Of a stretch of 64,000 nt of DNA, positions 463-58,485 are shown piece by piece. The DNA lies in the NCBI GenBank assembly GCA_051294905.1, contig CM119371.1:26848001-26912000 (forward strand), read 5' to 3'. The translations under genes and the position numbers were made by a program. Under the pieces are notes generated by a model. That model did no database searches, was not told the origin of the DNA, and saw only the letters and a list, made by a program, of their open reading frames with translations. The first letter of the stretch is position 1; each line of letters begins with the position of its first letter. Source of the DNA: Botryllus schlosseri. Lineage: Eukaryota.

Positions 463-755
463 TTATTCATCATCACCATCATCATGATCATCATCATCAT
501 CATCATTGTTATAGAAGAAATGCAAAAACAACTTCGCGGCCATGAATACTAGAATGTATATTAGTGGGGCCGTCTTAAAAACAATCGCCTCGCAACGGCG
601 CACAAATCTTTCCGCGTTCTCTCCTTCTAGGCCTTCTGCTGATTCTTGACAGTCCCGACGGCCCATCGCCATATACCAGACGTTGAAAATTGCGGCTCCC
701 GCGAGGCCGCCCCACCTCATGGGAATAGGTGCGGAAAAGTCGAAGTTATCTACAC
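463..755 (-). CDS. Copy 1 of unknown 2-TM protein family, terminal exon (alternatively a single-exon ORF from ATG 720)
   Basis: Aligns to copies 2-4: AMGR..C-x18-C, second hydrophobic helix, AK, acidic tail ending DDE-stop. Candidate phase-1 acceptor tcattcggctcag| at 756. Confidence 0.75.
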
Positions 756-1276
756 CTGAGCCGAATGATACGAGGAATTTACATCTTTGTATGCTACAAA
801 ATATCATCCTATGTAGTTCAAGTCTAAACAATGAGGGGGGCGTGGCCCAAATATTTTACGCAGCTGACTTTGCAACAACGCTTTTACGCTTTATATTGCG
901 TGCAGTTGCAATTTTTCATTCTACATGTGCATAGAAATTCACTAAAATCGACAACTAACTTATTAATCTATATTGAAAACTATTCGGCAGATTTGCAAAC
1001 AAGCGAAGTTAATATTTACATCACAATATCAATATGTCATTCACTATATTCAGATTCCAATACTAAACGATCATGAAATCACACCATTCCGTCCACATCA
1101 TGATCTAAAGTGAGAATGCTTAGCCGATTTATACAAGTCTGATAACATCTGATGTTAGAAGAGTATGGAAAATTCTCGAAAAAATATAATATTAGAAAAA
1201 GTGAATTTTAGGTTGTCAAAAATATTAACAGTTTGACAGAGTTGACAATGACTTTGACTTTCAGTATGTATCTCAC

Positions 1277-1387
1277 CGTCAAGCAGGTCGGGAAATATCA
1301 CCCGCTCAAACCATGTGACGCGATCGTGCATTACGCTCGACTGAATTGGTTCATTGTCAGGCCTGTTGGATGGAGTCCTTCCCGTGT
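1277..1387 (-). CDS. Putative internal exon of copy 1 (111 nt, ...RVTWFERVIFPDLLD)
   Basis: Acceptor ttccattgcag| and donor |gtgaga. Homologous to 22584, 47539 and 57172, with the same frame open in all four. Confidence 0.55.
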
Positions 1388-1554
1388 CTGCAATGGAATG
1401 AGTAAACGCTTAAGGCTATGATCAACATCCTACAATGCGAACGAAAAAACGTTGATTGACCAGATCTGTCTTGGTGCTGAGTATAGAGTATAATACTGAT
1501 ACCGCTGATTGTGAGACCTATAGCAATTCAATCCTTTATTGGACTACACATCAG

Positions 1555-1630
1555 TGGAGATGCGAAGCTTCAAGAAAATTCACTGTGTTGTTTGGAGATG
1601 CGAAGCTTCAAGAAAATTCACTGTGTTGTT
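1555..1630. repeat. Two tandem copies of a 38-bp unit
   Basis: tggagatgcgaagcttcaagaaaattcactgtgttgtt occurs twice in direct succession. Confidence 0.9.
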
Positions 1631-2451
1631 CGAATGCTCACAACAATATTCATGCAAGAAGTCATCCCATGCATATTTTAGCGAGCCCTTGTCCTGGCTC
1701 ACTTTACTTTTTTAAAACCTGTCAAATAACTCCATTCAAAATTGGTACGTTTTTTGCCTGCGTTGAAAGATTTCTGATGGTTTCACTTGATCTACGGTCC
1801 GTAAGCTAGACATGCCGCCCTAATTTACAACATATATTACCGATTTTCGCGACGTATTATTGACTGTAGACCTCTTGCAATCTCGGTAATGGAATATACG
1901 AAGACCACGAAGTATCAACAAACATTTACTACAGAACATTCCTGGTGAAATTTAAACACGAGAACAACCGACCAGTAGATCTATTTTATTTTTCTATTAT
2001 GGATCCGCTGCCGAGTCGCATTTGCGACGAACGATCATCTATCTTATTTTAATGGTCAGGTATTAATAATTTCCTTTGCATATTTTACTCACGTGAATGT
2101 AATTTTCAAAATACCAAACGAATGAATGAACGACAGCTGCAAAGATCAGGTGGCGGTGAACATTAAGCAATCCACAAAATATCTGGGCGTTGTCCTTTGC
2201 TACGATATCACTTTTTCATTTGCAAACATGAAGCATTAACGATAAATTAGCCTGACGGTAAATTTGATGACATGGCTATTCAATATACTTTTGCGAATAA
2301 GCATGCGTGACAGAAAACGCGAAATAGTGTTCAATTACATTTTGAAATGAATTTTTGAACATATTTTGTACTTAGTTCCGCAAGCCAAATCGCTCAGACT
2401 GAAGCCCTTTAAGCCTACATCCGAAACAAGCCCAAGCATTCAACCACACAC

Positions 2452-2521
2452 CATTAGAATCTTCATCTCTGTGGTCATCGTCTGAAGCTTCCTCAGCAGT
2501 GTTATCCCCTCTTCTCCTCAT
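2452..2521 (-). CDS. Putative first coding exon of copy 1 (MRRRGDNTAEEASDDDHRDEDSN)
   Basis: ATG and 70-nt length conserved in all four units. Donor is gtgtgt here and gtgagt in units 3 and 4. Confidence 0.45.
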
Positions 2522-3545
2522 ATCGTTGGTAATACAGCAACGAAAAGCTTAAGTTCAATATTTGTTGAAAATAATAGGGTAAACTGGAGGGTAAATATGA
2601 ATATAGTTATATCTGAGTATAAAATCCGAAGCAAGTAACCACAAGCGTTACGATGCTACTCACCACCGCAAAGCAATACCCTTAAGCGTACATACAATGC
2701 TGAGTAGACGATACTGTTTGTCTGGTGTTAATTGCCAATAGGAACGGGCCCAAGGTCAATAATTAGATGATGAAGCACCTGGAAGGAACATCTAATCACT
2801 AATTACCTTTTCAAAAGCGTTATTCCAGTGATGTAAGTTGTGGTCAGAAATTTGTCCAATTCACAAATCTTCTAAACACGTCAAGGTTTCAGTAAGAGTT
2901 TTACTGTGTTTTACACAGTTAGGGCTGCATTTGAAACAAATGATTGTTTCAAACAATCGCCTTTTAAAACAAAATGTTTTTTTAAGTTATAAAATCATGT
3001 CAGAATCGTGTAAATACATTCCAAAAAGCATGTTGTATGAGCCTACGGACAATTACCACGCAATATAGCTGACGTATACGATATGGGATGGTTGGAACCC
3101 CGAAAATAGGCGGATCAACAGCTATATATTCGTCTCACCAGTGAAAATCCGGTACGGACCAGGATGACGACGAGAGGCCGCAGAGCCTTAGTACACAGTC
3201 GCCACCTGCAAGAGTATACACGTTCCAATCAACGGCGCGTGACAATGAAAATAAATATACAAAACTACAAGAAATGTTGGGGGAAAAAGCAACCATGATA
3301 CAACGAGCTATATACATCAAAGTTTTGGGACTGCAGTGCAGGACTGAGTATAGATCGCAGTTTACACGGTACTTTACAATACAAGACAATAATTGAAATA
3401 CCGGCATGAAATTAAAACTTATCTAATAAATATTTCAGATAACGTTTTTTAAATAGATGATCAGGCAAATTTCTGAAGTGTACTGGTAGGGTTCCAGTTA
3501 AAGGCACCAAGTTAATAGAAACTATTCTGGGAGGACGATTTAGAT

Positions 3546-4954: not shown

Positions 4955-7033
4955 TGCGTCCCAAGCCGGCCTTGGATCACCCTTTCGTGGGTATAAGAGG
5001 TGCGTCAGGGGTTACGCATCTTAACTTTTGCTCATTTTCTTCATTGCCCCTAATTTGTTTTCTTTTATGTTTGCTCATCTGAGATCTTTTGGGATTCGCC
5101 GAGGATTTTTTCTGCGTCTTCTTCGTCCTCTTCCCTTTGTATTATTTTAATTCAAGTATTACTGAGCCGAGGATCCAATTGGTCATGATCTTAATAAGAG
5201 CTGTTTGCTGGTCATGTGTTATCCTCTCTTCTGGGTCCATTCGTATGATCTGCTGAAGGACTTGTGCTCCAATTTTTATTCGTGTTGCTTTTTGCCATGA
5301 GTTCAGGATCTTATCCAGGGCCAGCTTCGTTATCCTCATTCTGTGAATAGGTGCGCATGTGCTTCTAGTCTTATCCCACATATTTCGCAATCTCTCGTTT
5401 TTACTGCCAATCATGTCGTCATTCTGTCGTTGTTGGGTAGTATCCCCTGCGCGATATCCCAATTTATTTCCCTTTGCTGTTGTGTTTGGGTTCTGTGGTT
5501 GATATTTCCCCAGTTTGTTCCTTTCATTTCTGATATTTCTCTTTTCAGTTGTCTGTTCAGCATACCTTTGTATACATCTTTTCTGTTTTGGGGCAAGATC
5601 TTCTGTACTGATTTCGATGTCTATCATTGCCTCATTGACATTTTCCCAGTGTAGGGTGGTTGTAATGTGTGTGGCTTGTTGTTTTGGATGTGGCACTTTT
5701 TATATCTCTAGAGTACAAGGGCCAGCTGTTTGATGGTCTATTCTTTGCAACTCATCCCATTCACTTTCCCTTCATTTTTTAGGTAGCCTACATGATTGCT
5801 GGTTTGATGAAAGCGATATCTGTTTTTCTTGAGACGTCCACAGTATCCAACCCCCTTAGGGTTTTACTCAATGTCAGGCTCCTATATGTCATTTTTCTTT
5901 CTAGGCCAAAAAGGAAGGATTTGACTTTTTCTCTCAGCTTTGCTGCTAGGTGTTTAACGAATCCCGATGTTGCCGCTTGGTATACGAAGAGAGGCAGTAT
6001 ATTCGTTCTTACTATCACTACTTTTTCATGTCTTGGCAGATTCATTTTATCTACCTCGCTCATGATTTGGTCCGCTTTTCTTATTGCTTCCTCCCATTGT
6101 TTTTATGTAGTCTGCTCTCGGAGACTTATTTTGTTTCCAGGGATTGTTTTCTCCGTGGCCCATTTTAGCACCCTTGCTGGTGTTTGGCAGGCTCCCATCT
6201 CCGAAACGTACTCCCATTGTTTTTTCCTTGTTACTTTTCATGGTACTTGCCTTGCCGAATTTGTTTCTTATGTCAATTGTCTTTTTGTATTCCTTTTCGT
6301 CTCCGAGTGTTTAGAGATAGCGTCCGCATATGAGGGCGTTGTTATTTTGTCCTTGTGTCCTGTTAGCTTGTACCAATTGATGTCGCTGTTTATACATTGT
6401 AGGAGTGATTCCGTTGTGATTGGGAAGAGGAACATAGACAGCGGGTCTCCTTGTTTTAGTCCAGATTTGATTAGAATGTATTTTGCAGTTCTACCACCAA
6501 TCGAGACTTTTTCCTCTCCCTTTTGATATCTTTTTAAGGTACTGCTGCTTCGAGGGCTCCCTGCATAAACTCGTGGTTGATCATGGCGTATGCTTTTTTG
6601 AACGTCTCCTGAGACTATCACTCCTTTTTAGTATTCTCGCCAGTCTGCCCCGATCTTCCTTATAATTAGGTTCAACTGGCACATGTTGTCTGGCAAATTG
6701 ACGTATTGATGGCTGTGTGTTATATGCTTTAGGTTGTTTTTAGTCTGTTTGAGATTATCTTGTTTAGTATCTTGTAGTCCGAATTTAGTAATGTAATTGG
6801 CTTGTCATTTTTTTCCCTGTCATACCTTTTTTGTAGATGACTTTAATTATACCTCGTGCCAGTTCTGGAGGTATTTTTTGTACTCCGTATATCTTGCTGA
6901 GTGTTTCCGTAAGCTCCTTTAGTATGGTTTTTGAATTGAGTACATAAAATTCCGCACTTATTCCGTCTTCCCCAGGCGTTTGCCTTAATCTTTGCTGGGT
7001 TATCGCCAGTTTAACTTCAAGGAGTTGGATTTA
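4955..7033 (-). mobile_element. Decayed L1/Tx1-like LINE reverse-transcriptase fragment
   Basis: Fragmented frames with GIIKVIYKKG, PITLLNSDYKIL, SGLKQGDPLSMFLF and YADA (YADD-like); many frameshifts; ends approximate. Confidence 0.8.
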
Positions 7034-7380
7034 CCTAAATCGATATATAGCATCTATAAGATCAGAGGTCAGAAATTGTCTATATAGGAATATCTTGGAT
7101 GTCTGCTTCCGTTCTTCTCTTCTACGTATAACGTACAAGAAAATGTCGTTTCGGATTTGAGAATCATTCCTCCTATATGTATCTCATATTTGTTGTTGGT
7201 TTATCATTGCAAAACCGATGACCTCGAATTATTTACACATCGATCTTTCGTCATCGGCTGGATCAGTTCCAGAAAACAAGAAACCACAGAGTGTAAATTG
7301 CGCCTATGCCGAAAAAAAGTTTCCCGAATGGCCTATATGTTGATTAACCAACGTTGTCGAGAGACTCAGATACTGCGGAT

Positions 7381-7693
7381 TATTAATATTATTATTATTG
7401 GTACAACACAGTGGCGCTTATCGTAATCTTGGGGACGGCTTTCATTCTCTTCTCCCAGTCAATCTTCAGTCACCCTCACTAGCACGCGCCCCCAGCGTTG
7501 TCTCAGCTACCGCCTTGTAGCACGGCTCACTTTCGGTCTGGGCTTTTCAACGCACTACCGTAGTAGCAGGATCGGCGATGAGGAGCCCAGAGAAACCTCC
7601 GACACGTAGAAGTTGGTCAGAACCGGGATTCGAACCCACCTCCACTGGTGTCGTGACTGCACTGCGTAACCAACTGCGCCACTCGCTTCCCCG
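7381..7693 (-). mobile_element. tRNA-derived SINE, family A
   Basis: Head GGGGAAGCGAGTGGCGCAGTTGG (A box) and GTTCGAATCC (B box); (AAT)n tail; 13-bp TSD agatactgcggat; empty site at ~13540. Confidence 0.9.
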
Positions 7694-8447
7694 AGATACT
7701 GCGGATATACTTTCTCTGAATATAGAGCTTGTTCATTGTGAAACATTTTCTAGATTTTTCCGACTTGACTCTTGCTACTAATCATTCCGATAGTTTAGGA
7801 TGGGTTGGTGGGCCATTAGTGATTAAGAAGCCCCTGTAGAACGGTCAGGTTTGAGGTTTTATTCATATTCGATTGGATACAAGAGCTTCACATAGGAAAA
7901 TGTGAAGATAGTAAAACATCGAGGTTCATTCAACAAAAATAATGGCGTGGAGATCAAGTTACTCGGAATAGTGATTACGAGAGCTCACGAATCTTGGTTG
8001 ATTTTTCTAATATCGATCATTGAGTCTTCAAAACAATTTCTATACTTCAAAGTCGATTATTCAAACTTAAACGCTTGTCTAATTACGATAATAAATATAA
8101 TGGTGTTAGCTAGATCCTTCAACGAACAGAAATAAATGTTTAGTGTGGGTGTTCCATGGCATGGGTCGACATTCGACAATCTTCTCTCGACGCGACCCCG
8201 ATTCAAACGAAAATAAAATAATTCGACAAATGTTGTCTTCCGATATGTAGAAGAGCATTCGAAGGAATGCTTAAACTAAATCAGAGGTCTCAAACACGCG
8301 GCCCCGACGGCATTTTGGAATTTCAAGTATTCGACAATATATTTATGTGCCACATATATTTTCTAGATTTAAGAACTTCAAGTTCAACCTAAAACTACTA
8401 TAAAAATCACTGAAATCTCGACAAACTACACTATCACATCACTTTAA

Positions 8448-9207
8448 AGGGGACTCAAGTCAAAAACCTAACTTGCGGATGGCTACCCCAATCTCCATGA
8501 GATTTTCACAGTCGCTAGATGTCGCTATGCTACATACAAAAACATTGGTTCTACTCTGCATATGGTGGCATATTGAGGATTTGAAGGACAGAAAATACAC
8601 CGACACAGGGACTGCAAACTCTCAAAATTTGAAAGCCTTTTTACGATATAACACCTTCTTTAGGAAGTATTACGAAAGTGCTGTGCTATGCTAAAATTTG
8701 AAGGAATATGTGATACCTTTCTCGGAGAAATTTTGTTTCAAAATTTATAATTCAAATTTGTATCATAAAATTGCTGTAAGTTTGCTATAAAGTTCCGTAA
8801 CTCTTAGCATGGTTGACGTATGTAAAAAATATTTAGCATAGGACATGTTTGACTGTCCATTTGCAAAGTATCAAGTCAACAAGTGTTACCGATGTAATGA
8901 TGAGAATGATTGCCAGTATGCTTGAATGACAACTGACAACAATCTAACAAATTTGAACCCGGAGATAATATATATATATGTTCTAATGGTCAAACCATAT
9001 ATTTTATGAAGTTATCGGACGGAGCATGCGATCTTTTGGTTGGAACTTGACCCCTCCCCCCATTATCAAAGGAAAATAGAAATAAAATGTTGCTGTTTTT
9101 AATTATTGTTTTGGTGAAATATGGGCATGGTGTGGCAGATGTGACTCCTTATTTACAACCAGAAATAAATTTTGATTTTTCTGCAACTTTTTGACTTGCC
9201 AGTCCTC
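8448..9207. mobile_element. Non-autonomous DNA transposon, Kolobok-like termini (second copy ~14293-15040)
   Basis: ttaaaggggactcaagtcaaaaa ... tttttgacttgccagtcctcttaa: imperfect TIRs flanked by TTAA. Confidence 0.5.
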
Positions 9208-9315
9208 TTAAAAGCTACCGTGCGGTAGAAGACCAGCTATTTCGTCACATTTCTAGTTCATGATGATAAAACATCGATCGTTGAGGATTTGTGAGAGAAA
9301 ATTGTGATTTGGTTT

Positions 9316-9581
9316 GAGAGAGAGAGAGAGATATGGTATTCTTTTTCGCCTGCACCATCGAGATGCTTTGACGATTAGATGCGATACGGCGTTTATAGTA
9401 AGGTCATCTAGTCTGCACTCCCGTTTTTTTTCTCCTCCATGCTATCCGTGATTGCTGAGCGCCTAGCAGGATAGCCGCGGATACCAGTTTCCGAGTCTTT
9501 GGTCTGACCCGGCCGGGGATCGAACCCACGACCTACCGATCGAGAAGCCGGACGCACAACCATTACACTACCTCGCTCGGT
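9316..9581 (-). mobile_element. tRNA-derived SINE, family B, with (TC)n tail
   Basis: Head ACCGAGCGAGGTAGTGTAATGG...GTTCGATCC; further copies at 15149 and 46935. Confidence 0.85.
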
Positions 9582-10484: not shown

Positions 10485-10750
10485 CAGTGTTGGTATCAAG
10501 TCACTAACGTCGAGTCACAAGTCATCATTGTACATTTTGACTTGAGTCAAGTGAAGGCAATCGGTTTTTAAAAGTGACTCGAGTCAAGCCACTGGATATT
10601 TGGAGGTGGCTTGAGTCAAATCAAGTCGAGTCGAGTCGAGTCGAGCCGAGCTGAACCGAGCTGAACCGAGCCGAGAGCCGAGCCAAGCCAAGCCAATTCA
10701 AGCCAAGTCAAGTCATAATTCGAGTCAAGTGGCCTTTTCGAAGTATGAGG
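10485..10750. mobile_element. Left end of a GAGTC-repeat hAT MITE (truncated; duplicate at 16317)
   Basis: cagtgttggtatcaagtcac matches the left end at 3646; GAGTC/GAGCC pentamer array follows. Confidence 0.7.
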
Positions 10751-15148: not shown

Positions 15149-15413
15149 GAGAGAGAGAGAGAGATATGGTATTCTTTTTCGCCTGCACCATCGAGATGCT
15201 TTGACGATTAGATGCGATACGGCGTTTATAGTAAGGTCATCTAGTCTGCACTCCCGTTTTTTTCTCCTCCATGCTATCCGTGATTGCTGAGCGCCTAGCA
15301 GGATAGCCGCGGATACCAGTTTCCGAGTCTTTGGTCTGACCCGGCCGGGGATCGAACCCACGACCTACCGATCGAGAAGCCGGACGCACAACCATTACAC
15401 TACCTCGCTCGGT
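15149..15413 (-). mobile_element. SINE family B (duplicate of 9316-9581)
   Basis: Identical apart from one T in a homopolymer. Confidence 0.85.
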
Positions 15414-19998: not shown

Positions 19999-20250
19999 TT
20001 ATTCATCATCATAGTGATTGAGAAAACACACTAAGCACTTAGCGGCAACGAAGGTGATAAGGTACATTCCAGAGGCTATCATATATACATAGTAGTCGCA
20101 ATGGCGGATGGAGTGTGCCACGTCCTCTCCTGCGTGGTCTGCTGTTCCTTCTCGACATAGGTAGCGGCCCATCGCAATCCACAAAAATGTGAAAAACAAG
20201 CTCAGTAAGATGCCGCAATATATCATGGTATATCCTGAGAAAAGATTCAT
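19999..20250 (-). CDS. Copy 2 of unknown 2-TM protein family (terminal exon probably 19999-20234)
   Basis: 83-aa ORF with two hydrophobic segments, C-x18-C and DDE-stop. Colinear without indels with copies 3 and 4. Acceptor ttttctcag| at 20235. Confidence 0.8.
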   Translation of the reverse strand: MNLFSGYTMIYCGILLSLFFTFLWIAMGRYLCREGTADHAGEDVAHSIRHCDYYVYMIASGMYLITFVAAKCLVCFLNHYDDE

Positions 20251-21449
20251 GTTATCTGCAACGCAGCCGACTGAGAATAGGAATATTTAGCTGCATATAT
20301 GTACCAAAGGGGGCCAGTAACGATGTAGGCCTAATTCGAATTATGCGGACTCCTCAAAGTCGGCCTAACTGACTGCACTAGAGTCCGTGGTTCTGGTTCA
20401 GACAGCGTCGAGTTATCTAGGACAGATACTACTTTCAATTCATAGTTTTTTATGTAAAATAGTGGAAAACAGTCTTTGGGCTACTTGCTTATTTTCTCTC
20501 AATTCATTTTGTACGTGTACCGGAAAATAATTTTGATGGCTTTAGAATTGCTACTTTACTTGGATTCAAGTAAAATATACTGCGTTGCTCCATCTATTAC
20601 TATACTTGAGTTACAGCGTTGACTACCTTCCTTCACAACTTCCTACAACAGTGGTTCTCAGCAGCAAGTCGTTGCAAGCTTCCTGCGGGTCTGCAAGATA
20701 TACTAGACTTTTATATCTCAATTCCAAAAGGCAAGAAATCGGACGTTTGTTCATTAAAACACCAAACATCACAATTTAAACACTGAACATATTTTTCCAT
20801 GTGGCGTCTTAACGTGGAGTTCATTGTCTGTCTTTGGATTAGCGTACGACAGAATGCTGCAAGTCTTGTACGAAACTGTTTAAAATGAGCCTATCACGAG
20901 CCGTTAACGTGAAAGCTTAAAAAGATGTTTAAACAAAATTCGTTACATTAAGATGGTACAATTTAACGACAATTAGTAGTAAAATATAGAGGCAAGAGAA
21001 CAGCTGACTCGGATTTATTTCAAGGGAGACCAAATGATCAAACTCAGAAGTTGGGAGGTTTAATCTTCAAGAGAGCCGCTTATAACATGTTTAATGAAAG
21101 AGCAGTATTAAATAATTTCGAATATTTACTGATAGGTTGAATACTTTCGTTGTAAATTTGTCGGTCCGCACAGTTTATGTTGATGTTTCATACCGGTCCG
21201 CAAGATCAAAAAGGTTGAGAAAAACTGGCCGTCCTACTACAAGCGTTATATCTTATAAAGAGCAAACTTAAATACTTATCAGGCGTAGCCAGGATTATGT
21301 TACACAGCGTGAGATGCGATGGTTCCTTTATACATTATACCTTATAAACTGTTGCAGCATTTCACCAGAGTGTTTTGAATATAGATCAAAATCGATCATT
21401 TGTAGGTAACAAACGTTCATGCCCGTGTGTGTCAGACATAAAAGTAGAG

Positions 21450-22251
21450 AAAGAGACGCTTAGGAGTACAGAACTTCATAACACATTTGAATAAAATATT
21501 CATATTTATTCCCGAAGCTTTTCGGCTGACCCTCGTCAGGGGATAGCGTCAGCAGTATTGCGAGAATTCGAATAACTATGTTCAACAACAATATATATCG
21601 CTAATTATGACGTCACACAGAAAATATACAAAGTTAGGAAAACGAGAGAACTGGAGCGTTGGCATGGAGATAGCGAAGCAAAACAAGTTAATGCGCGATT
21701 TTCAAATGATGCACAAATTCTTTCTATTGGCATAAACTAGGTTTACTCATAGTGATGATGGTGGACTCAAGAACAGACAAATGAAATAAATTGCGACCCT
21801 TAGCCAATACAGAGAACATGTCCTCGTGGTAGTTAGCAGCACATGTATGATTTTCTAGTAAATGTTTGCCGATGGAAGATTTTTGACCCATGGCCTGGTT
21901 ATGTTCTAGAACAAGCCGATTGTTATGCTGCGATTTCGAGATATAAGATTTGACAGACGGTGGGATGTGTTCTTTAATACGGTCCTGCAACCGTTTGGAA
22001 GTTCTCCCTACGTACCGACAATCGCAGTGGCACTTGAATTCATTAATGACGTTACTTTGTTGTAAAGCAGGGAGAACGTCCTTTCGGGTTGCAGGAAACA
22101 TTGGTATCGTGGTAAAAACAACATTGGTTTCCACCGCTGGATAACAGCGATAGACTGCTGAAGTTATCTGTTTCTCAAATCGATAAGAAACCGGGCCAAT
22201 CCAAGATAGATGAATGTACAACAAAATATGAATATTTTATTCAAATGTGTT
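21450..22251 (-). mobile_element. 5'-truncated Penelope-like retroelement (GIY-YIG endonuclease fragment)
   Basis: ORF 21724-22224 has NVINEFKCHCDCRYVGRTSKRLQDRIKEH...SSIGKHL. A 30-bp inverted segment (21478 vs 22224) and a 12-bp TSD ataaaagtagag are present. Confidence 0.9.
21510..21542 (-). ncRNA. Minimal type I hammerhead ribozyme
   Basis: UCCC-CUGACGA-GG(GUCAG)CC-GAA-AAGCUU-C-GGGA: intact core and palindromic helix III, inside the Penelope terminal region. Confidence 0.8.
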
Positions 22252-22583: not shown

Positions 22584-22688
22584 CGTCAGATAAGTGAGGA
22601 AATATTCTTTGCTCCAAGAATGTGCCATAGCGATCAGGGTTCTGTCTTGACTCTCTTCTTTCGACGATTCTGGGGGATCGAGTCCTTT
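22584..22688 (-). CDS. Putative internal exon of copy 2 (105 nt, ...RYGTFLEQRIFPHLSD)
   Basis: Acceptor ttctattaccgatacag| and donor |gtgaga; 3-nt indel relative to units 3 and 4. Confidence 0.55.
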
Positions 22689-23028: not shown

Positions 23029-23044
23029 CTGTCAATGTCAATGT

Positions 23045-23831: not shown

Positions 23832-23901
23832 CATTAGAATCTTCATTACTGTGGTCTTCGTCTGAAGCTTCCTCAGCGGTGTTATCCACTCTTCTCCTCA
23901 T
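23832..23901 (-). CDS. Putative first coding exon of copy 2 (MRRRVDNTAEEASDEDHSNEDSN)
   Basis: Conserved ATG, 70 nt, donor gtgtga. Confidence 0.4.
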
Positions 23902-24204
23902 ATCGTTGGTAATGCAGCAACGAAAAGCTCAAGTTTAATAGGGAGCCTACTTGTTGAAAATAATAGGTTAAACTAGAGGATAAACAGGAATATAGTTATA
24001 TCTGAGTATGAAATACGAAGCAGGTAACCACAAACTTCGTGATGCTACTAACCACCGCACAGCAATACCGTAAAGCGTACGGAGAATGCTGTGTAGACGA
24101 TGCTGTGCGTTATGTTCGTCTGGTGTTGATTGCCAATGCGAACGGACCCAAGGTCAATAATTAGATGATGAAGCACCTGGAAGAAACATCTAATCACTAA
24201 TTAC

Positions 24205-42750: not shown

Positions 42751-42986
42751 TTATTCATCATCATCGTTATTGACAAAATACACTAAGCACTTAATGACAA
42801 CGAATATGACAAGGTACATTACAGAGGCTATCATATATACGAAGTAGTCGCAATGACGGGTGGAGTGTGCCCCGTCCTCTCTTGCTTGGCCCGCGGTTCC
42901 TTCTCGACATAGGTAGCGGCCCATCGAAATCCAAAATAATGTCATAAACAAGATCAGAAAGACGCCGCAATGCATCATGGGAAAAC
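42751..42986 (-). CDS. Copy 3 of unknown 2-TM protein family, terminal exon
   Basis: ORF 42751-42978 is colinear with copies 2 and 4. Acceptor ttttctcag| at 42987. The upstream ATG of copies 2 and 4 is out of frame here. Confidence 0.8.
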
Positions 42987-43895
42987 CTGAGAAAAGATTC
43001 TCATGTTTCCGAAACGCAGTCGACTGAGAATAGGAATATTTAGCTGCATATATGTACCAAAGGTGGTCAGTAATGAAGTAGGCCTAATTCGACTTATTCG
43101 GGCTCCTCAAAGTCGATTTAACTGACTGCACTCTAGTCCGTGGTTCGGTTTCAGACAGCGTCAAGTTATCTAGGACAGCTACTGCTTTCAATTCATAGCT
43201 TTTTGAATAGTGGAAAACAGTCTTGGACTACTTGCTTATTTTCTGTCTATTCATTTTGTACTTCTACCTGAAGCAATTTTGAATGCTTGAGAATTGCTAC
43301 TTTACATGGATTTAAGTAAAATTTACGGCGTTACTCCGACTACTATACCAGTGGTTCCCAACCTTTTTCGACTCATCGCCCCCTTTTGAAGCTCCACATG
43401 GATCATCATCCCCGAAATATTGGGCACCGAAAAATGGGCATACAAACTGGGATCGCCGACGAGTTGACTAATTAAAAAAGGTCAACTTTTCGGCTCGACC
43501 TCGAAATTTCACTTCCACAGCTAAATATTCGTGAGTTGACTAAATAAAAGGTCATTTCTCCGACTTGACACCAATCAGGACCATAACAGCCCTCGTCAGC
43601 CCCCCCAAATAAAAACGTAAGTCTTTGGTCCCATAGGGTGATAAGCCAAACCCCAGACCTCCTTAGCTAGTGGGCTTTTCGTCGCTACATATCAGCTATA
43701 CCCTATTTCATGTACTGTTTGGTGAGTCATCGTATCTCGCCTAAACGCGCGAAAAGTTTATATAATTCATGTTTGAATCGGTCAATGTGGTCGGGAATTG
43801 CATATATATTGCTATCTATTTTTTTATCCTCTTTCTGCTCACGTAATGAGACTTACCGGTAGAGCCGAGTGTGGTATGTTGGAAAAGGTATAGGA

Positions 43896-45411
43896 TAGGG
43901 TTGTCATACGTCCGGAATTTATCGGACATGTCCGGAATTTCATTGTTAAAACTGCGTCCGGGAGGAATTTCCAAAATATGCCTAAATGTCCGGAATTTTG
44001 AAGACTTGAAGTAAGTTCATAATTCTTTCCTGAATCAACATAAACGATATTATTTTTGAGAAGATTTGCGCAACATGAAATTTTTCTTCGCGCTGCGCGC
44101 GATTTAGTATAACACATATTGCGTTTAATATGGGGACAACCACCCTCGCAAAATAGCATTCATTTACAGAAATAAGTTTAATTGTAATCGCAGTTTCAAG
44201 ATAACGGTAAATTAATTGAGTCGGTTTAGGCCGTTTGGATGCTTTATTCAAAAATAGTGGTTCTAAATCTAGGGGAGTTTGCCTTTATTCTGGGGTTCGG
44301 CAAGATGTTGAACCTTAACAGCTTCCAAAATAGGCCGTAGTAAGCTGGGCAAATGTGCCACCCTTTAATTTGTAATCAAGTTATCAAATTTTTGAGCTGG
44401 GCCACGGAACATTTTCAAATTGCAAATGGATTCATGACCATAAAAAGTTGGAAATCACTGGATATGCGGTGATTGTATAGGTAAGTGGGAAGCGAGGGGG
44501 GTAGTTGGTTAAGCACCAGCGCCACGACACCAATGGCAGTGGTTCGAATCCCGGTTCGGACTAACTTCTATGTGTTAGAGGTTATACGGGCTCCTCATCG
44601 CCGACCTCACCGCCATTGCGGTGAATTAAAAAGCTCAGATATGACAGTGGGTCGAGCAATAAGTCGACGATAAAGAACCGATGAAAGCCTTAAAGATACA
44701 GAGACTGCTGAAAGAGCGCACGGGCGATTGAACATGAAGAAATGCATTGACCTGTGTGATAAAATGTGATGTAGTGGAGCACAAAGCCCTAATCGGGCTA
44801 TAAGCACCACGGTTGTATGTTGCTCCCCGGGTTATGTGTGTATCTACCAGTTTTACTGTGAATAAAGAAATATTAATATAGGTCAGTGGTGTGGTGCGCA
44901 CCGGCATTAGGCTGATAAATAATCCTATCGGTGTGACATGATCACGACGATCTACACGATGTACAATCACGGTCCTTGCATTTTTGAAGTCATCATTCTC
45001 CACCAGCTCTATACCGCTAACTCTGATCATGTGGGCGAAGAGAGGATCAAATTATAGAGTAAATAGGGAAAAACCAATATTCATTCAAATAATTTCACGA
45101 CCATATGCATATAGAAACTAGATGCACATGGTATGCACCCAGAAATTACATCGATTATACCCTACGGTGGGCCCAAGATCAGGGTTTGCTTGGGCGGGAG
45201 TGGGCTGAAAAATGTGACTTCGGCCCTGGTTACAAGTTACACACAACCACATATACTCCTCAACCGGATTGTGACCAACTTTAGTCGATAGACAAAGCTT
45301 TGCTGGTGTGACGTCATATTGATCGACAATATGCTCATGCCTCATTTTGAAATCCGCTGGGAGGCGCTAAAGAGCGTCCAGAATTTGTGTTACAAAAATA
45401 TGGTAACCCTA
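43896..45411. mobile_element. TAGGGTT(G/A) hAT MITE nested in 43349-46109
   Basis: tagggttgtcata...tatggtaacccta; perfect TSD gtatagga. Confidence 0.88.
44487..44876 (+). mobile_element. SINE with family-A tRNA head and a different 3' body
   Basis: gggaagcgag...gttcgaatcccggttc; TSD tataggt(a/c)agt. Confidence 0.8.
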
Positions 45412-46934
45412 GTATAGGACCCCTAAATAATACTTGATGATTTCAAATTGGTATTTCTTTGCTGGCAAGTAATTTTTTCCTTGCGGGATGGCATTTGTCC
45501 TGTAGGGTTAAGGTCGCCAGGACAGGATTATTCGACGCCAGGCATTTAGGCGCCTATCGACAATTAAACATATATGTATATATATCGAAGTTTTCGGTCA
45601 GCATAAGGACATTCATTTTCGGTCAGGGTCTTCTCGCTGCTGACGGCACATTTCTTGGAGTCGCATGTTACATGGCCTCTAACTTCATATGTCTTGGTGC
45701 GTCGCGGCGCAGTAATATCCGACGCTGAAGTCTTCCACTTCCATGAATCATGCGTATTTTTATCGAGTGACGGGTACCCCAAATAAAGATCTATTAAAAT
45801 ACGAATTCGCGCACAGCGCGAAAAATTTGTAAAGAAGTTGCATGAATTTCTGAAAAATTACTGCATAATTTATGTTAATTCACGAAATAATTTTGGGCCA
45901 TCTTCGAGTTCGGGCCGCCACCCCCAATTGAAGGGTTTGAGTGCGGCAGTTACGGTCCTGACTCCAATATAGCTGTTTCAACGCGCCATCGCCCCCCTAT
46001 CGCCCCTTTCGTCAGTTTTCGCCCACCTATCGTCCCTTCGTTATTTTCGCCCCCCTAGACCACCAAATCGCCACCTGGGGGGCGATATCGCCCACGTTGG
46101 GAACCACTGTACTATACTATACTTGAGTGACAGCGTTGCCTACCTTCCTTCACAACTTCCTACTACAGTGGTTCTCAGCAGCAAGTCGTTGCAAGATATA
46201 GGCCTACTAGACTTTTATATCTCAATTCCAAAAGGCAAGAAATTTGACGTTTGTGCATTAAAACACCAAACATCACAATTTAAACATTGAATCATATTGT
46301 TCTGCGTGGCGTCTTAACGTGGAGTTCATAGTGTGTCTTTGAATTAGCGTACGACAGAATGCTGCAAGTGTTGTACAAAACTGTTTAAAATGAGCCTATC
46401 ACGAGCCGTTAACGTGAAAGCTTAAAAAGATGTTTAAACAAAGTTCGTTACATTATGATGGTACAATTTAGCGATAATTAGTAGTACAATATGGAGGCAA
46501 GAGAACAGCTAACTCGGATTTATTTCAAGGGAGACCAAATGATCAAACTCTGAAGTTGGGAGGTTTAAACTTCAATATAGCAGCTTAAAACATGTTTAAT
46601 GAAAGAGCAGTAATAAATAATTTCGAATATGTACTGATAGATTGAATACTTTTGCCGTAAATTTGCCGGTCCGCACAGTTGATGTTTCATACCGGTACGC
46701 AAGATCAAAGAGGTTGAGAAAAACTGGCCTATACTACAAGCGTTATATCTTATAAAGAGCAAATTTATATACTTATCAGGCGTAGCCAGGATTATGTTAC
46801 ACAGCGTGAGATGAGACGGTGCCCTTATACACTATACCTTATAAACTGTTGCAGCATTTCAACAAAGTGTTTTGAATATAACTCAAAATCTATCATTTGT
46901 AGGTAACAAACGTTCATGCCCTTGTGTGTCGGAC

Positions 46935-47202
46935 AGAGAGAGAGAGAGAGAGATGGTATTCTTTTCCGCCTGCACCATCGAGATGCCTTGACGACGGAGA
47001 TGCGATACGGCCTTTGTAGCAAGGTCATCTAGTCTGCACCCCCGTTTTTTTCTCTCTCATGCTATCCGTGATTGCTGAGTGCCTATAGCAGGATAGCCGC
47101 GGATACCAGTTTTCGAGTCTTTGGTCTGACCTGGCCGGGGATCGAACCCGCGGCCACCGATCGAAAAGCCGGACGCACACCCATTACACTATCTCGCTCG
47201 GT
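46935..47202 (-). mobile_element. SINE family B
   Basis: Close match to 9316-9581; (TC)n tail; empty site at ~56871. Confidence 0.9.
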
Positions 47203-47538: not shown

Positions 47539-47646
47539 CGTAAAAGAAGCGAGGATATATCCTTTGCTCCAAGAATGTGGCAGAGTGACCAGGGTTCTGT
47601 CTCAACTCTCTTCTCTCATCGACGATTCGGGGGGATCGAATCCTTT
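47539..47646 (-). CDS. Putative internal exon of copy 3 (108 nt, ...HSATFLEQRIYPRFFY)
   Basis: Conserved acceptor and donor; open frame. Confidence 0.55.
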
Positions 47647-48757: not shown

Positions 48758-48827
48758 CATTAGAATCTTCATCACTGTGGTCTTCGTCTGAAGCTTCCTC
48801 AGCGGTGTTATCCACTCTTCTCCTCAT
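48758..48827 (-). CDS. Putative first coding exon of copy 3 (MRRRVDNTAEEASDEDHSDEDSN)
   Basis: ATG plus consensus donor g|gtgagt. Confidence 0.5.
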
Positions 48828-51615
48828 ATCGTTGGTAATGCAGCTACCAAAAGCTCAAGTTTAATAGGGAGCCTATACTTGTTGAAAGTAATAGGGTAAA
48901 CTAGAGGATAAATATGAATATAGTTATATCTGAGTATGAAATCCGAAGCAGTTAACCACAAACTATTCGTGATGCTACTTACCACCGCACAGCAATACCG
49001 TTAAGCGTACAGAGAATGCTGTGTAGACGATGCTGTGCGTTATGTTCGTCTGGTGTTGATTGCCAATGCGAACGGACCCAAGGCCAATAATTAGATGAAG
49101 AAGCACCTGGAAGAAACATCTAATCACTAATTACCTTTTCAAAAACGTTATGTCAATGTCAAACCACTATGACGCTACAATTGAATATTCGTGACGTCAT
49201 GGCATGAAGAACAAACAATAAATAAAAAACAAATTTTAAACAAGGGCCTTATTTTAAACATGTTTGTTTCAAATTGATTTTTGTTTCAGATGTAACCATA
49301 TACACAGTTATATATATATCATTAGTAGGAAAATATATATCAAGAAGAGGTCAAGTAGTTTTTCCAGTAAATGACCTGTAACTGGTCATATTTATACGTA
49401 AATCGACAGCTAAGATCCGAGGTCAAATTTTGTCTATAGGAATATCTTGGATGTCTGCTGCCGTTCTCTTGGACGTCTAAGGTACAGGAAAATGTCGTTT
49501 CAGACTCGAGAATGTGAGCATAGCTCCTATAGGTAGCTCAGATTCGTTGTTGGTATGTCATTGCAAAACCGATGACATCGAATTATTTACATTATCGTTT
49601 CGATATGTCGTCATTGGCAGGATCAGTTCCTGAAAACACGAAACCAGAGAGTGCAAATCGCGCCGAGGCCTAAAAAATGTTCAAATTGATCGTATAGCGG
49701 ATCCCGAATGGCCTATATGCTGATAAACCAACGTTGTCGAGAGGTTAAGATTCAGCGGATATACTTTCTCTCATTATAACGCTTGTTCAATGTGAAATAT
49801 TTCGAATATTTTTCCGACCTGACTCTTGCTTCTGATCATTCCGATAGTTTAGGATGGGTTTTGGGGGCATCAATGATAGAGAAGCCCCTGCAGAACGGTC
49901 CAGTTTCAGGTTTCAGTCATATTCGATAGGATACAAGAACTTCTAGTGGGAAAATGTGAATATAGTAAAACATTGTCGTGCATTTTACTAGAAATAATAG
50001 CGTAGAGATCAAGTTGCTGGGGAAGGTGATTACACGGGCTCACGAATCTTGGTTGGTTATTCTAATATCGATTACTGAAACTTGAAACGAGCCTTCAAAA
50101 ATATTTCTATACTTTAAACTCGATTATTCAAACTTGAAAGGTTGCCTAATTACAATGATAAATATAATGTTGTTACCTAGGTCCCACAACTAACAGAAAT
50201 ATACGTTTAGTTTGGTTGTTGTATGGCAGTGGTCGGCAACCTTTATCCGATGCGACCCCAGTTTAAACGAAAACAAACTCATTCGACACATTTTGCCTTG
50301 CAATACGTAGAAGAGCATTCGCGGGATTGCTTAAACTGTTGCGTTGACCCCATAATAGAGCAATCTAATTTCAGACAACTATTCGAAACTGACTGTTTCT
50401 ACGAACATATGAAGTCAATTTCAACAACACTAATTGTCACCGTCTAATTTGCACTGGTAATGCCATAGCTGAGCCTCTAGTTGTGCCTCCACCAGTTGCC
50501 GAATCCTCGGCTTGACTTTTCATACGCTCAACAATGTCTCATTCTCTGCTTGAATTTGACGACAAATGAATGCTAAATTTATAGTTTCTACATACCACGT
50601 ACGTGGGCCTACATACGTGCATAGGTGGTTAATTAGGCTAGTAGATTTGTTATTCAAGTAATGGAATAATTAGCGACGTGAACCTTTACTTAATTATGAG
50701 TAGAAATGACAATTTCCAAGACACGTTCAACCCACTTCAAATGGAAGTATAAATGAAATGAAAGAAATGAAAACCAAAATTAATATTTAAATTATATACT
50801 GCCTCAGTATGAGTTGTGCTGAATTTAATTGACTATGAGTATGGGTATGAGTATGAGTTGATCAGAATGTAATTAATGACATTTCTTCGTGTAATTGTAA
50901 TTGTAATTGTAACTGAAGCATTTCTATTTTGTGTAATGGTAATACGATAAAAAAAATTCCTAATTACAATTACAATTTCAATTACGTTGATATTGAAACT
51001 TGACAATCACAACATAAAATATTTATCCTAATTTCATCGGTGTTCTATGCGTGCCTCGTTGACTAGGTAATTCAGCATATCTGCACTAATTCCCATACTT
51101 CAGTAGCAACAGAAAACTTAGTGAATTACAATATAGGCTAAATCAGTGGTTCCCAAACTGGAGTGCGTGTCCCCCTTCGGAGGCGTGAAAGCATCTGAAG
51201 GCGGACGCGAAGCTCCGGTAAAGTGAAAAAAATTTCCGCGCTTTGCGCAATTTACCTCCATTTCATATTTATTGCTCTGTGTATCGTCCGAATTTCATAT
51301 TGGAGAATTCTTTCATCAACAGTCATAACCTTCCATACCATCAAACTATCTGTAAGGATGGCTAAGATTATGGTTTCATTGTGTGATATGACGATAAGGG
51401 GGGCACGAATAATTTCACTGTCATAAAGAGGGGGGGGCGTGTCTAAAAATCTGAGAACCAGGGGGGTAAACTAAATCTTAATATTTATAAAAAATCGATG
51501 AACAGCAAATAAACTTTGCTGAAGCATGTGCTGAAACATTTCCAACACCACGGTCATGTTTTTTTTCAAATGGGCGTACCACCAACCATAGAACGGCGAG
51601 AAGACTAAACATCGC

Positions 51616-55795: not shown

Positions 55796-55927
55796 AGAGC
55801 TTCTTAGAGGTACAGAACTTCAATATGCAATTGAACAGCATATTCATATTGAAATGACGATTACCCTTGACGAGTGTCAGCCGAAAATATTCGGGTTCAT
55901 TTCAATATGAATATACTGGTCAATTGT
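55796..55927. mobile_element. 132-bp Penelope-derived mini-insertion with a hammerhead-like core
   Basis: TSD atatactgaaga; start resembles 21450 (gtacagaacttca); inverted arms around accc-ttgacga-gtgtcagcc-gaa-aatatt-c-gggt. Confidence 0.75.
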
Positions 55928-56354
55928 ATATACTGAAGAGTATATATTAGGGTTACCATACTTATTTTATAAGGATTCGTCCTCTTTTTTTGAGAATTTC
56001 GGCAAAATATAGGCTAAAATTCGACTGAGATACAGTAAATCTGCACTGAAGTAACGTTCTGGCAGCTATTTCAGGAGCTGAGCCGGAAATCTGACCTTTT
56101 GTTTAGTCAACTAGCGGACAACGTGAAAGAAAAACTGTGTTGAGCGGGAAAGTTGAACTTCTTTATTTTAGTCAACCGACCAAGAAATGGGAAAAAATGA
56201 ATTTTTTTTTTTAATTTTTCACCGGTATAGTGAGTCTGAAAATTTTGAATAAGTGTCCTCTTTTTTAGATTTCTAAAATATGGTAACCCTAGTCACAGTG
56301 TATACAAGCCTGATACAATTTAGAGTGGTCTTAATATAGCACAGTAAATAACTT

Positions 56355-56606
56355 TTATTCATCATCATCGTTATTGCCAAAATACACTAAGCACTTAGCG
56401 CCAAAGAATATGACAAGGTACATTCCGAAGGCACTCATATATGTGACGTAGTCGCAACGGCGGACGGAGTGCGCCACATCCTCTCTTGGTTGGCCTGCTG
56501 TTCCTTCTCGACATAGGTAGCGGCCCGTCGCAATCCACAATAATGTGAAGAATAAGATCAGTAAGACACCGCAATACATCACGAAGTAACCTGAGAAAAT
56601 ATTCAT
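56355..56606 (-). CDS. Copy 4 of unknown 2-TM protein family (terminal exon probably 56355-56590)
   Basis: 83-aa ORF colinear with copies 2 and 3; acceptor ttttctcag| at 56591. Confidence 0.8.
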   Translation of the reverse strand: MNIFSGYFVMYCGVLLILFFTLLWIATGRYLCREGTAGQPREDVAHSVRRCDYVTYMSAFGMYLVIFFGAKCLVYFGNNDDDE

Positions 56607-57171
56607 GTTATCTGTAACGCAGCCGACTTAGAATAGGAATATTTAGCTGCATATATGTACCAAAGGTGGTCAGTAACGAAGTAGGCCTAATTTTACTTAT
56701 TCGTACTCCTGAAAGTCGGTTCAACTGACTGCACTCTAGTCTGTTACACAGCGTGAGATGCGACGGTGCCTTTATACATTATACGTTATAAACTGTTTCA
56801 GAATTTAACCAGAGTGTCTTGAATATTGATCAAAATCGATCATTTGTAGGTAACAAACGTGTGTGTCAGACATAGAAGTAGAGGTGGCAGAGAAATAATG
56901 TTATATTCAATACTTCACAATATCTCCTACTTACATCTTCACTCCCTAAATTTCAATAGAAAGAACATATTTAATTAAATCGGATAATTATGCCAGAATC
57001 GTGGCTACAAGCTTTAATGTGCAGATAATGTAAGACGCCACTAACAGCAGGATGAATATTAAGAGAAAAATACCAATCAATATCATATTATAAAAGATGA
57101 AGCTGCGACTTAATTTTGCCAAGAATATTTAGCTGTGATTCATGTCATTGGATATGATTTTTGCATCTCAC

Positions 57172-57279
57172 CGTCCAATATGTGATGAAATCTCCTGAGC
57201 TCCGAGAATGTGGTATAGCGACCAGGGTTCTGTCTTGACCCTCTTCTTTCATAGAAGATTCTGGGGGATCGAGTCCTTT
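57172..57279 (-). CDS. Putative internal exon of copy 4 (108 nt, ...RYTTFSELRRFHHILD)
   Basis: Conserved acceptor and donor; open frame. Confidence 0.55.
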
Positions 57280-58415
57280 CTGTATCGGTAATAGAATATG
57301 GCTAAGCGTTTCGTGCTCTGATCAAAACTTTACAAACAATTAAAACCGGGTATAAATCAATCTTGTGACATTTTCAGGCAATACGTTTACATTTCATCCC
57401 GATATGAGTTTAGGTAATGATCCATGCATACTAGATAACACGCTATACGAGCACTTTTGAATTCGACATGAAATCGGGAATCTCTTTGGAACGTATATCT
57501 GGAGCAGTAACTAACTATATCCGTTTGGAAACCGGGCCTGATATAACTAATGCGGTAAAACCGCGGGTAAAAACATGTGCTCACCAGTAATAGTTGCAAG
57601 GCACGCTGTCTCATTTATAACTGTCAATGTCAATGTCCTATCAATGAAATCCGAGACCTATCAATGAAATCCGAGACCTATCAATGAAATCCGAGATCTA
57701 TTAAAGACATCCTTTATACTACTGTTGTTAATCATCCGTAATGTAGACGATACATTAATGATTTCACTGCAGTATTTGTGAAACTGTTATCCTCTTTAAG
57801 GCATTCATTGGAAGTCCACGAACGACCCACAAATAGGGCGGGTGTGTGAACGTGAGGTTCACGTTCGCGTTCTGTGTGTGAACCTCAGCAATTTGGAGGT
57901 TCTCGTTCACAAACGGTTCTGCACTTTTAACCTTTTCCCGATATGACAATTTTCTTCTAACAACATCTTTGGTTGAATTTTTCGCCTTTCAACTGCGAGC
58001 CACTCTATACATAGCGCTGGCAGCATAAAAATCAACACTTACCTAACATGTACATTGACAATCTCAAACATTTTACTTGTTTTGTTACAAAGGTTTACTC
58101 GAAATATCAATCTTTCCGTTTGCGAATATTTAGTGACTGTCTGCTGTGAGCTTGTCAGCATCAAGAGAGAAACACACTACGTGTGGTCAATGAATGCTGC
58201 TTATTGACCTTAAATTGACGGTAAATTCGATGGCATAGCTATTCAATATACTTTTGCAAATAAGCAGGCGTGACTGGAAAATGCCAAATAGTGTCTAATT
58301 ACATTTTGAAATGAATTTTTGAACTTAGTTTGTACTCAGTTCCGCAAACCAAATCGCTCAGAATGAAGCTCTTTAGGCCTACATCCGAAACAAACCCAAG
58401 CATTCAACCACTCAC

Positions 58416-58485
58416 CATTAGAATCTTCATCACTGTGGTCTTCGTCTGCAGCTTCCTCAGCGGTGTTATCCGCTCTTCTCCTCAT
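58416..58485 (-). CDS. Putative first coding exon of copy 4 (MRRRADNTAEEAADEDHSDEDSN)
   Basis: ATG plus consensus donor g|gtgagt. Confidence 0.5.

Follow-up and report, generated by a model that had tools for sequence, protein, structure and literature searches.

A minus-strand array of at least four tandem paralogs, very probably a lineage-specific four-exon gene, on Botryllus schlosseri CM119371.1

In the L/M opsins of gibbons, exons diverge more than introns (PMC3213168). According to the portion of that source consulted here, the pattern was shown in 94 individuals and its functional reason is known, and it is read as conversion in the introns combined with selection against homogenisation in the exons. 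The catarrhine L/M opsin tandem array resembles the locus described here in this excess of exon over intron divergence and in a history that is discordant along the gene, as both are set out in the same portion of the paper (PMC3213168).

The stretch analysed here (the window; 64,000 nt of Botryllus schlosseri CM119371.1) holds four copies of a repeated unit, all on the minus strand. They very probably form an array of at least four tandem paralogs of a lineage-specific four-exon gene, the structure of which is ordinary. That a spliced gene was missed by an open-reading-frame track is ordinary as well; the interest lies in a product almost without relatives and in coding exons that outpace their introns, a pattern known where selection keeps copies distinct. 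The explanation we favor as a whole, and regard as probable, is a lineage-specific paralog array with homogenised introns and with exons 2 and 3 kept distinct by selection. The features are as follows.

2664..2778, minus strand: copy 1 exon 0, predicted non-coding, 115 nt (9-nt deletion relative to the other copies), inferred from a conserved acceptor and a GTGAGT donor
2452..2583, minus strand: copy 1 exon 1; ATG at 2521, 70 coding nt, phase-1 donor
2200..2290, no strand: recombination boundary in copy 1 intron 1; identity to copy 4 falls from 50-57/60 to 22-43/60
1277..1387, minus strand: copy 1 exon 2, 111 nt; its acceptor precedes the one in copies 2-4 by 6 nt
463..755, minus strand: copy 1 terminal exon; in-frame acceptor at 755 or 749, AATAAA over the stop
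24053..24176, minus strand: copy 2 exon 0, predicted non-coding, 124 nt
23832..23972, minus strand: copy 2 exon 1; ATG at 23901
22584..22688, minus strand: copy 2 exon 2, 105 nt
21457..22251, no strand: retroelement fragment in copy 2 intron 2; 12-bp target duplication, weak GIY-YIG match (E 0.009)
20389..21297, no strand: ~910 nt of intron 2 common to copies 2 and 3, missing in copy 4 and apparently in copy 1
19999..20234, minus strand: copy 2 terminal exon, two predicted transmembrane helices; further in-frame acceptors at 20255 and 20270
48983..49106, minus strand: copy 3 exon 0, predicted non-coding
48758..48900, minus strand: copy 3 exon 1; ATG at 48827
47539..47646, minus strand: copy 3 exon 2, 108 nt
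46954..47202, no strand: second insertion in copy 3 intron 2
43345..46115, no strand: insertion in copy 3 intron 2; short terminal inverted repeats, 8-bp duplication
42751..42986, minus strand: copy 3 terminal exon; closest acceptor in frame at 42986
58637..58760, minus strand: copy 4 exon 0, predicted non-coding (inferred)
58416..58556, minus strand: copy 4 exon 1; ATG at 58485; 4 RNA reads (run X5) in bin 58383-58573
57844..58154, no strand: high-copy repeat in intron 1 (copy 4 coordinates), in copies 2-4 and not in copy 1
57172..57279, minus strand: copy 4 exon 2, 108 nt, Arg-rich
56355..56590, minus strand: copy 4 terminal exon, two predicted transmembrane helices; alternative in-frame acceptors at 56611 and 56626

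A sequence-only reading of the window had proposed that its small open reading frames are the last exons of a spliced gene with phase-1 introns, and comparison of the paralogs supports this proposal. The 70-nt segments running from the ATG to a G|GT border were located at 2521-2452, 23901-23832, 48827-48758 and 58485-58416 (minus strand). Middle exons of 111/105/108/108 nt follow at 1387-1277, 22688-22584, 47646-47539 and 57279-57172 (minus strand), each preceded by AG and followed by GTGAGA; one frame is without stops in all four, and a second is also open in copies 2 and 4. The terminal exons measure 293/236/236/236 nt (3n+2) and start at 755, 20234, 42986 and 56590 on the same strand, behind last introns of 521/2349/4552/581 nt (copies 1-4). 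All introns are GT-AG and phase 1, and the joined exons are stop-free inside, giving frames of 157/136/137/137 aa, close to the roughly 135-155 aa first predicted. The original model can be read in the sequence at the positions given. It does not cover the whole gene: each ATG segment makes up the 3' portion of an exon 1 of 132-143 nt, and a conserved exon 0, predicted to be non-coding, lies upstream, separated from it by an intron of 80-82 nt. AATAAA overlaps the stop codon in all four copies. A conserved block of 1 kb lies upstream of exon 0, and no tRNA gene was found.

The last-exon acceptors named in that reading exist at their positions but are not homologous between copies. For each last exon, two or three candidate acceptors keep the frame, and in copy 3 the homologous upstream acceptors are lost or frame-shifted by a 1-nt insertion. 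A partly wrong model built on real exons, in which the last exon uses a different acceptor (749, 20255, 56611), translation begins elsewhere or additional exons lengthen the protein, would accommodate the acceptor homologous in copies 1, 2 and 4, which is in frame and 21 nt upstream of the original site in copies 2 and 4, as well as the conserved 1-kb block and, by eye, one open frame in exon 0 of copy 4. We hold this to be improbable. Read by eye, that exon 0 frame is interrupted by a stop in copy 1 and runs into another early in exon 1, and exon 0 was rejected as a coding exon; also by eye, copies 1 and 4 carry an in-frame stop upstream of the ATG; and no longer homologue was found, which is weak evidence, among 5073 longer candidates in a word-based search. 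The lack of an upstream acceptor in copy 3 fits use of the downstream acceptor in copies 2-4.

Variation in the last intron had been put down to transposable-element insertions and a deletion. The sizes are right, but the last intron seems originally to have been short, which makes a 910-nt insertion common to copies 2 and 3 a likelier event than the 'deletion' (the alignment being weak). That the insertions spare the exons, offered as support for the model, carries little weight, since five insertions would all miss the exons with a chance of ~0.7^5 = 0.17 by a hand estimate.

Several features argue that the joined frame is coding. Simulated neutral evolution leaves it without stops with probabilities of 0.065, 0.28, 0.030 and 0.225 (copies 1-4), a product of ~1e-4. 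In every copy, the five remaining reading frames of the terminal exon contain 3-14 stops; the open frames are thus beyond chance. Once acceptor choice is allowed for, exon indels are of 3 nt or multiples only, whereas the copy 1 flanks show 6-8 gaps of mixed length per 150 nt. Acceptor shifts between paralogs, of 6 and 21 nt, are both in frame, and in the 60%-diverged copy 1 the alignable islands center on exons 2 and 3. Were the copies dead or dying duplicates evolving neutrally as pseudogenes, the dN/dS of ~1, the neutral-like amino-acid changes and the near absence of RNA in two libraries would be explained. Yet this is very improbable, as 4/4 copies have no stop or frameshift despite exon divergence of ~15% among copies 2-4 and ~40% for copy 1 (neutral chance ~1e-4), splice sites and poly(A) signal are intact in all copies, and the exons of a pseudogene should not outpace its introns.

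RNA junctions had been named as the check on the model, and in two RNA runs none of the predicted ones was seen among the joints listed (0/15; 98 further joints exist). The runs contribute 4 reads in total, all on exon 1, and depth is zero or near zero in the repeat-free bins of exons 0, 2 and 3. Two other runs, X1 and X2, were discarded as splicing evidence because their depth is even over introns and they behave as DNA. The gene may be transcribed in few cells or stages. In genes with spliced-leader trans-splicing, the leader is joined at an unpaired 5' acceptor, as described in part of PMC3074122. The acceptor of exon 0 is conserved, the sequence directly upstream differs in copies 2 and 3, and exon 0 is without reads; in copy 4 this acceptor may be a trans-splice site.

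Exons 2 and 3 are twice as variable as introns among copies 2-4 (variable columns 80/338 versus 164/1318, p 7e-7). The excess remains when CpG sites are removed (56/279 versus 225/1977, p 1e-4). Exon 2 alone gives 25/105 versus 132/1073 (p 0.002) and forms a sharp divergence peak between two quiet flanks, and second codon positions account for 14 of its 25 changes (p 0.016). These divergence tests were chosen after seeing the data and cover three copies of one haplotype. Overall, dN/dS is 1.1-1.3 (1.30 for copies 2-4, 1.11 for all four), not significantly above 1, and no positive-selection site class was detected in 112 codons, which give little power (M2a versus M1a, p 0.64 for three copies and 0.33 for four on a star tree). 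Amino-acid changes in exon 3 are not more conservative than neutral (p 0.28), and polar changes in the helices number 2 versus 5 expected (p 0.10). The exon excess hints at selection for diversity. Neither the faster divergence of exons 2 and 3 nor the mosaic nature of copy 1 featured in the earlier reading.

The same excess could arise without selection if the genes are real and subject to patchy conversion, receive exon tracts from other paralogs, or mutate more in GC-richer exons, the protein drifting under weak constraint. Such an origin agrees with a dN/dS near 1, with third codon positions that are raised as well (25/111, p 0.005), with an exon 3 that does not exceed its own 154-nt flank (55/233 versus 27/154, p 0.16), with divergence that increases 5' to 3' along the unit, a rise that conversion history alone could produce, and with exons of 47% GC versus 32-39%. 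It squares poorly with the peak and second-position excess of exon 2 and with the persistence of the excess outside CpG sites, and higher synonymous divergence is also predicted by selection against homogenisation; we consider it unlikely, though it is the strongest of the rivals weighed here.

Which two copies are most alike depends on the position in the unit (chi-square 43.5, 10 df, p 4e-6; runs test p 0.03). By sequence comparison the copies are recombinant mosaics, copy 1 included, with a boundary in intron 1. On the view of selection-maintained exons in a homogenised array, unequal crossing-over, its boundary lying in intron 1, would have produced the array. Conversion among the copies would go on homogenising the introns and the 5' end, and selection would keep exons 2 and 3 distinct.

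In the predicted product (136-157 aa), an N-terminal region that is first acidic and then Arg-rich leads into two hydrophobic helices; between them runs a loop of 24 aa containing an invariant pair of cysteines, and the protein ends in a short acidic tail. No break in the open frame separates the helices in any of the four copies, and they are clear in copies 2-4. Hydropathy peaks reach 1.7-2.5, two per copy in copies 2-4 and one in copy 1, where the first helix is weak and the acidic tail longer. In the terminal exon of copy 4, the loop between the helices spans 24 aa and holds the two invariant cysteines. Hydropathy gives no N-terminal hydrophobic signal or signal peptide, and an AlphaFold model shows a hairpin (pLDDT 73). 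As modeled, the protein would insert as a signal-anchored hairpin whose two ends face the same side, most likely the cytosol, although the charges flanking the helices do not fix the topology; the loop would lie on the opposite side, tied by a disulfide.

Judged by its sequence, the product is without relatives in 1.84 billion representative proteins beyond one fragment. A full HMMER search returned two matches: P0001, a 59-aa fragment that shares 31-33 of 46 residues with copies 2-4 and is a further variant, and P0002 (849 aa), a hydrophobic tandem-repeat translation set aside as compositional. A word-based search with a profile retrieved only P0001 among 174 candidates, and one with the copy 3 reading frame gave no match. 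The four terminal exons had no Pfam match near the cut-off, PDB sequences gave 0 matches and viral contigs 0/77. Two of 190 metagenome stretches passed the scan and were rejected; both match over a short length, in loci that are GC-rich and of bacterial type, and one match is out of frame with the unrelated ORF it overlaps. Structure searches recovered generic hairpins only (Foldseek best E 1.7; VIA best Z 9.2, to unrelated helical pairs). In the ESM Atlas, copy 4 gave no usable match and copy 2 hypothetical clusters at 0.89-0.91 with recognition below threshold, a lead at best. A literature keyword search found no such family described, though an unnamed family would escape keywords.

A defence or recognition role of the array is a guess. 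The product might act where host meets pathogen or where cells recognise each other, as a small protein that modifies membranes or partners a receptor, IFITM-like in action without being an IFITM; we offer this tentatively. Rather doubtful is the fuller picture of an undescribed hairpin membrane family of one ascidian lineage, its diversity held by selection, that serves in antiviral defence, allorecognition or gamete recognition and is unrelated to fester, fuhc and IFITM, with copies 2-4 as hybrids of a shared 5' end and diversifying 3' halves and with copy content varying between individuals. Should RNA and population data confirm the array, it would be a concrete candidate defence or recognition factor in an invertebrate chordate.

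Among small membrane proteins, the CD225/dispanin family with IFITM, as outlined in part of PMC3282796, is likewise small, with two hydrophobic helices near the C-terminus, a charged loop, a longer N-terminus, a short tail and clustered genes. However, the CD225 Pfam model is listed for 0/4 copies with E allowed up to 10, although above E 0.1 most matches are removed by the HMMER filters. The dispanin motifs given there, G-D and A-X6-A in the loop and C-C in helix 1, are not in the product, in whose loops the widest Ala spacing is A-X7-A. Helix 1 has a single Cys in copies 2-4 and none in copy 1. Dispanins, on the same partial account, have a conserved intron in the loop, whereas here both helices lie within one exon (PMC3282796).

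Botryllus fester, FcoR and BHF are, in the sections drawn on here, diverse, recombining and copy-variable ascidian families at a recognition interface (PMC12582321, PMC12065747), as this array might be. Fester and FcoR are described there as type I proteins that carry Ig and Sushi domains and have three helices or one, unlike the 137-aa hairpin (PMC12582321, PMC12065747). The product shows no N-terminal hydrophobic peak and its terminal exon no Ig or Sushi Pfam domain, and the 60 residues before the terminal exon are too short and too charged for Ig plus Sushi, so these families do not fit. BHF is disordered and without a transmembrane domain by the same descriptions (PMC12582321, PMC12065747); the present product has helices.

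Viperid three-finger toxin genes, as presented in part of PMC2474615, share highly similar paralog introns, divergent exon segments and retained cysteines; unlike the present product, the toxins are secreted with a signal peptide, and there is no sequence relation (PMC2474615). Nothing in the predicted product indicates a toxin function. The L/M opsin comparison concerns pattern. This locus is represented by three copies of one haplotype and encodes an uncharacterised protein with much larger amino-acid divergence, unlike the opsins as portrayed in the portion of PMC3213168 cited above. As in the opsins, exons diverge more than introns (third positions being a proxy for synonymous ones, and exon 3 versus its flank not being significant), and ancestry is discordant along the gene.

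The window (39% GC) is animal DNA rich in transposon remnants, with reverse transcriptase, DDE_Tnp_4 with THAP, hAT and GIY-YIG fragments, and four units make it up as a tandem array that has degenerated. No fifth copy was found in the window by tblastn. The units, given by their predicted start codons, and the repeats around them are as follows.

2521, minus strand: start codon of copy 1
23901, minus strand: start codon of copy 2
48827, minus strand: start codon of copy 3
58485, minus strand: start codon of copy 4
5611-17573: ~5.8-kb internal tandem duplication lying upstream of copy 1, with LINE remains (97.5% identity across 4059 nt)
26130-28505: Harbinger-like element splitting the upstream block of copy 2 (DDE_Tnp_4 E 2e-14, THAP weak)
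40720-42078: reverse-transcriptase frame of 353 aa (RVT_1 E 1e-34), then one stop and 98 further codons
53731-54397: long inverted repeat (arm complementarity 93-96%), probably a foldback or MITE element
7523-7692, 37701-37869, 44487-44639: short dispersed repeat, SINE-like by its tRNA-derived look to the eye; ARAGORN called no tRNA gene in the three

The sequence-only reading proposed that each unit is a spliced gene, with an ATG exon (exon 1), a middle exon (exon 2) and a terminal exon (exon 3), and all its coordinates are correct. Joining the three segments gives frames of 157, 136, 137 and 137 aa (copies 1-4) free of internal stops, and the introns are GT-AG and phase 1. Exons 2 and 3 have diverged by ~15% among copies 2-4 and by 40% from copy 1, with no stop or frameshift in any copy; the remaining five frames of exon 3 contain 3-14 stops apiece. 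In a neutral simulation driven by the mutation spectrum of non-coding DNA, the probabilities of acquiring no stop were 0.065 and 0.28 for copies 2-4, and 0.030 and 0.225 for the copy 1 branch (~1e-4 jointly). Local alignment of the diverged part of copy 1 with copies 2 and 3 leaves exon-centred islands at 497-801 and 1158-1434, together with an 80-nt piece 3' of the stop. Acceptor shifts between paralogs keep the frame (6 nt in exon 2, 21 nt in exon 3), and in all four copies AATAAA overlaps the stop codon, four-copy similarity fading ~25 nt further on. The spliced gene family is very probably real. At 463-505, an in-frame trinucleotide expansion lengthens the copy 1 tail by ~10 acidic residues.

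The model needs amending. Copies 1, 2 and 4 share a homologous AG (749, 20255 and 56611), which differs from the last-exon acceptors first chosen; that choice is plausible for copies 2-4, because copy 3 has lost the homologous AG and copy 1 is missing the downstream one. The last introns measure 521, 2349, 4552 and 581 nt, as proposed; the deletion invoked for the short form is more likely an insertion in copies 2 and 3. Intron 2 of copy 1 can be aligned with its short counterpart in copy 4 (z 8.0; z 1.8-1.9 in the weak middle stretch) but not with the 910 nt that only copies 2 and 3 possess (z 2.2 and -0.2), which makes the short form the probable ancestral state. One site of intron 2 has received unlike insertions in copies 2 and 3: in the former a retroelement fragment (22251; 12-bp duplication), in the latter a 250-nt repeat (47202).

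A conserved block precedes the ATG in all four copies. It begins with an acceptor, followed by an exon of 115-124 nt (exon 0, predicted to be non-coding) whose GTNAGT donor opens an intron of 80-82 nt; exon 1 is predicted to start 62-73 nt before the ATG. Of the four leaders, only that of copy 1 contains an upstream ATG, a single one. Trans-splicing is described in Ciona (excerpt of PMC3074122) and reported for Botryllus (excerpt of PMC3691228), and by analogy with Ciona the exon 0 acceptor could be a trans-splice site. Further 5', a low-copy block of ~1 kb occurs in all units at ~80-93% (59371-60327, 49411-50337, 29552-30165, 13175-14124 and 7032-8280). It is a possible promoter or outron; in copy 4, its depth was zero in two RNA runs.

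Expression was assessed by aligning four runs, two contig sets behaving as DNA and 2 of 21 raw RNA runs, to the copy 4 region (55900-61600) at 85% likeness, a threshold at which exons 2 and 3 are unalignable for copy 1 and borderline for copies 2 and 3. A run search listed no RNA data set as carrying the sequence. From the two RNA runs, 12.9 million and 10.0 million reads were used, amounting to 6% and 13% of the run concerned. Nearly all RNA depth lies over high-copy repeats, and the repeat-free bins that contain exon 0, exon 2 or the 5' portion of exon 3 have a depth of 0 to 0.02. Run X5 places four reads (two starts, ~120 aligned bases each) within the exon 1 bin, with neighbouring bins at 0, which fits clipped spliced reads but is also compatible with short fragments. 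No predicted junction is among the 15 joints listed; a further 98 joints were left off the listing. Expression in the two RNA samples is very low at most.

The predicted protein is acidic over residues 1-24 (9-10 D/E) and, in copies 2-4, Arg-rich over residues 25-60. In hydropathy plots, the N-terminus of every copy lacks a hydrophobic peak. Copies 2-4 show two peaks, at 1.7-2.5, and copy 1 shows only the second. AlphaFold, given the four last exons, returns a helical hairpin (pLDDT 73, pTM 0.51), and two loop cysteines are invariant in 5/5 sequences. We infer a membrane topology and a loop disulfide. Homology searches took the last exon only and found one homologue, P0001, a 59-aa fragment from one Logan contig that matches copies 2-4 at 31-33 of 46 residues and copy 1 at 18 of 46; other last-exon searches were blank or gave matches that we rejected.

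Although the architecture recalls CD225/dispanin proteins, the four copies have no match to the Pfam model, and the motifs of loop and helix are missing, as is an intron in the loop (features from an excerpt of PMC3282796); we therefore do not file the array there. Its architecture also differs from those of Fester, FcoR and BHF, as far as excerpts describe them (PMC12582321, PMC12065747). No account of such a family is among the papers listed by literature searches, and supplementary gene lists could include members. A role in defence or recognition is a tentative suggestion.

The copies have exchanged sequence, since the closest pair varies along the unit (p 4e-6): upstream it is copies 2 and 3, within intron 1 copies 2 and 4. 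Identity between copies 1 and 4 is 50-57/60 down to ~2250 in intron 1 and 22-43/60 beyond, which on this comparison marks a recombination boundary.

Among copies 2-4, exons 2 and 3 are more variable (80/338 columns) than introns (164/1318 with the shared repeat left out; p 7e-7), also after removal of CpG columns (56/279 vs 225/1977, p 1e-4). Variable columns number 80/653 in an upstream block, 6/124 in exon 0, 5/80 in intron 0 and 11/141 in exon 1. Exon 2 exceeds both its flanks (p 0.002), and second codon positions account for 14 of its 25 changes (p 0.016); for exon 3 the excess over its own flank is not significant (p 0.16), and its amino-acid changes are neutral-like in kind. Third positions are raised as well (25/111, p 0.005). 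In codon models, dN/dS (1.30 and 1.11) does not differ from 1 and no positively selected site class is significant (p 0.64 and 0.33). At 57181-57204, the aligned contigs of run X1 all differ from copy 4 at six exon 2 positions and by eye match copies 2 and 3; contigs show presence, not absence, and the copy 4 variant may be haplotype-specific.

We lean towards selection as what maintains the exon divergence. In gibbon L/M opsins, where exons likewise diverge more than introns, non-coding DNA is homogenised by conversion and exons are kept apart by selection (excerpt of PMC3213168). Here too, conversion between copies would homogenise non-coding DNA and selection would resist this within exons. 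Such a process would be the simplest joint reading, a good hypothesis rather than a demonstration because it draws on three copies and post hoc tests. The array combines an ordinary gene structure and an orphan protein with a suggestive evolution, its alike introns and divergent exons resembling those of viperid toxin genes (excerpt of PMC2474615).
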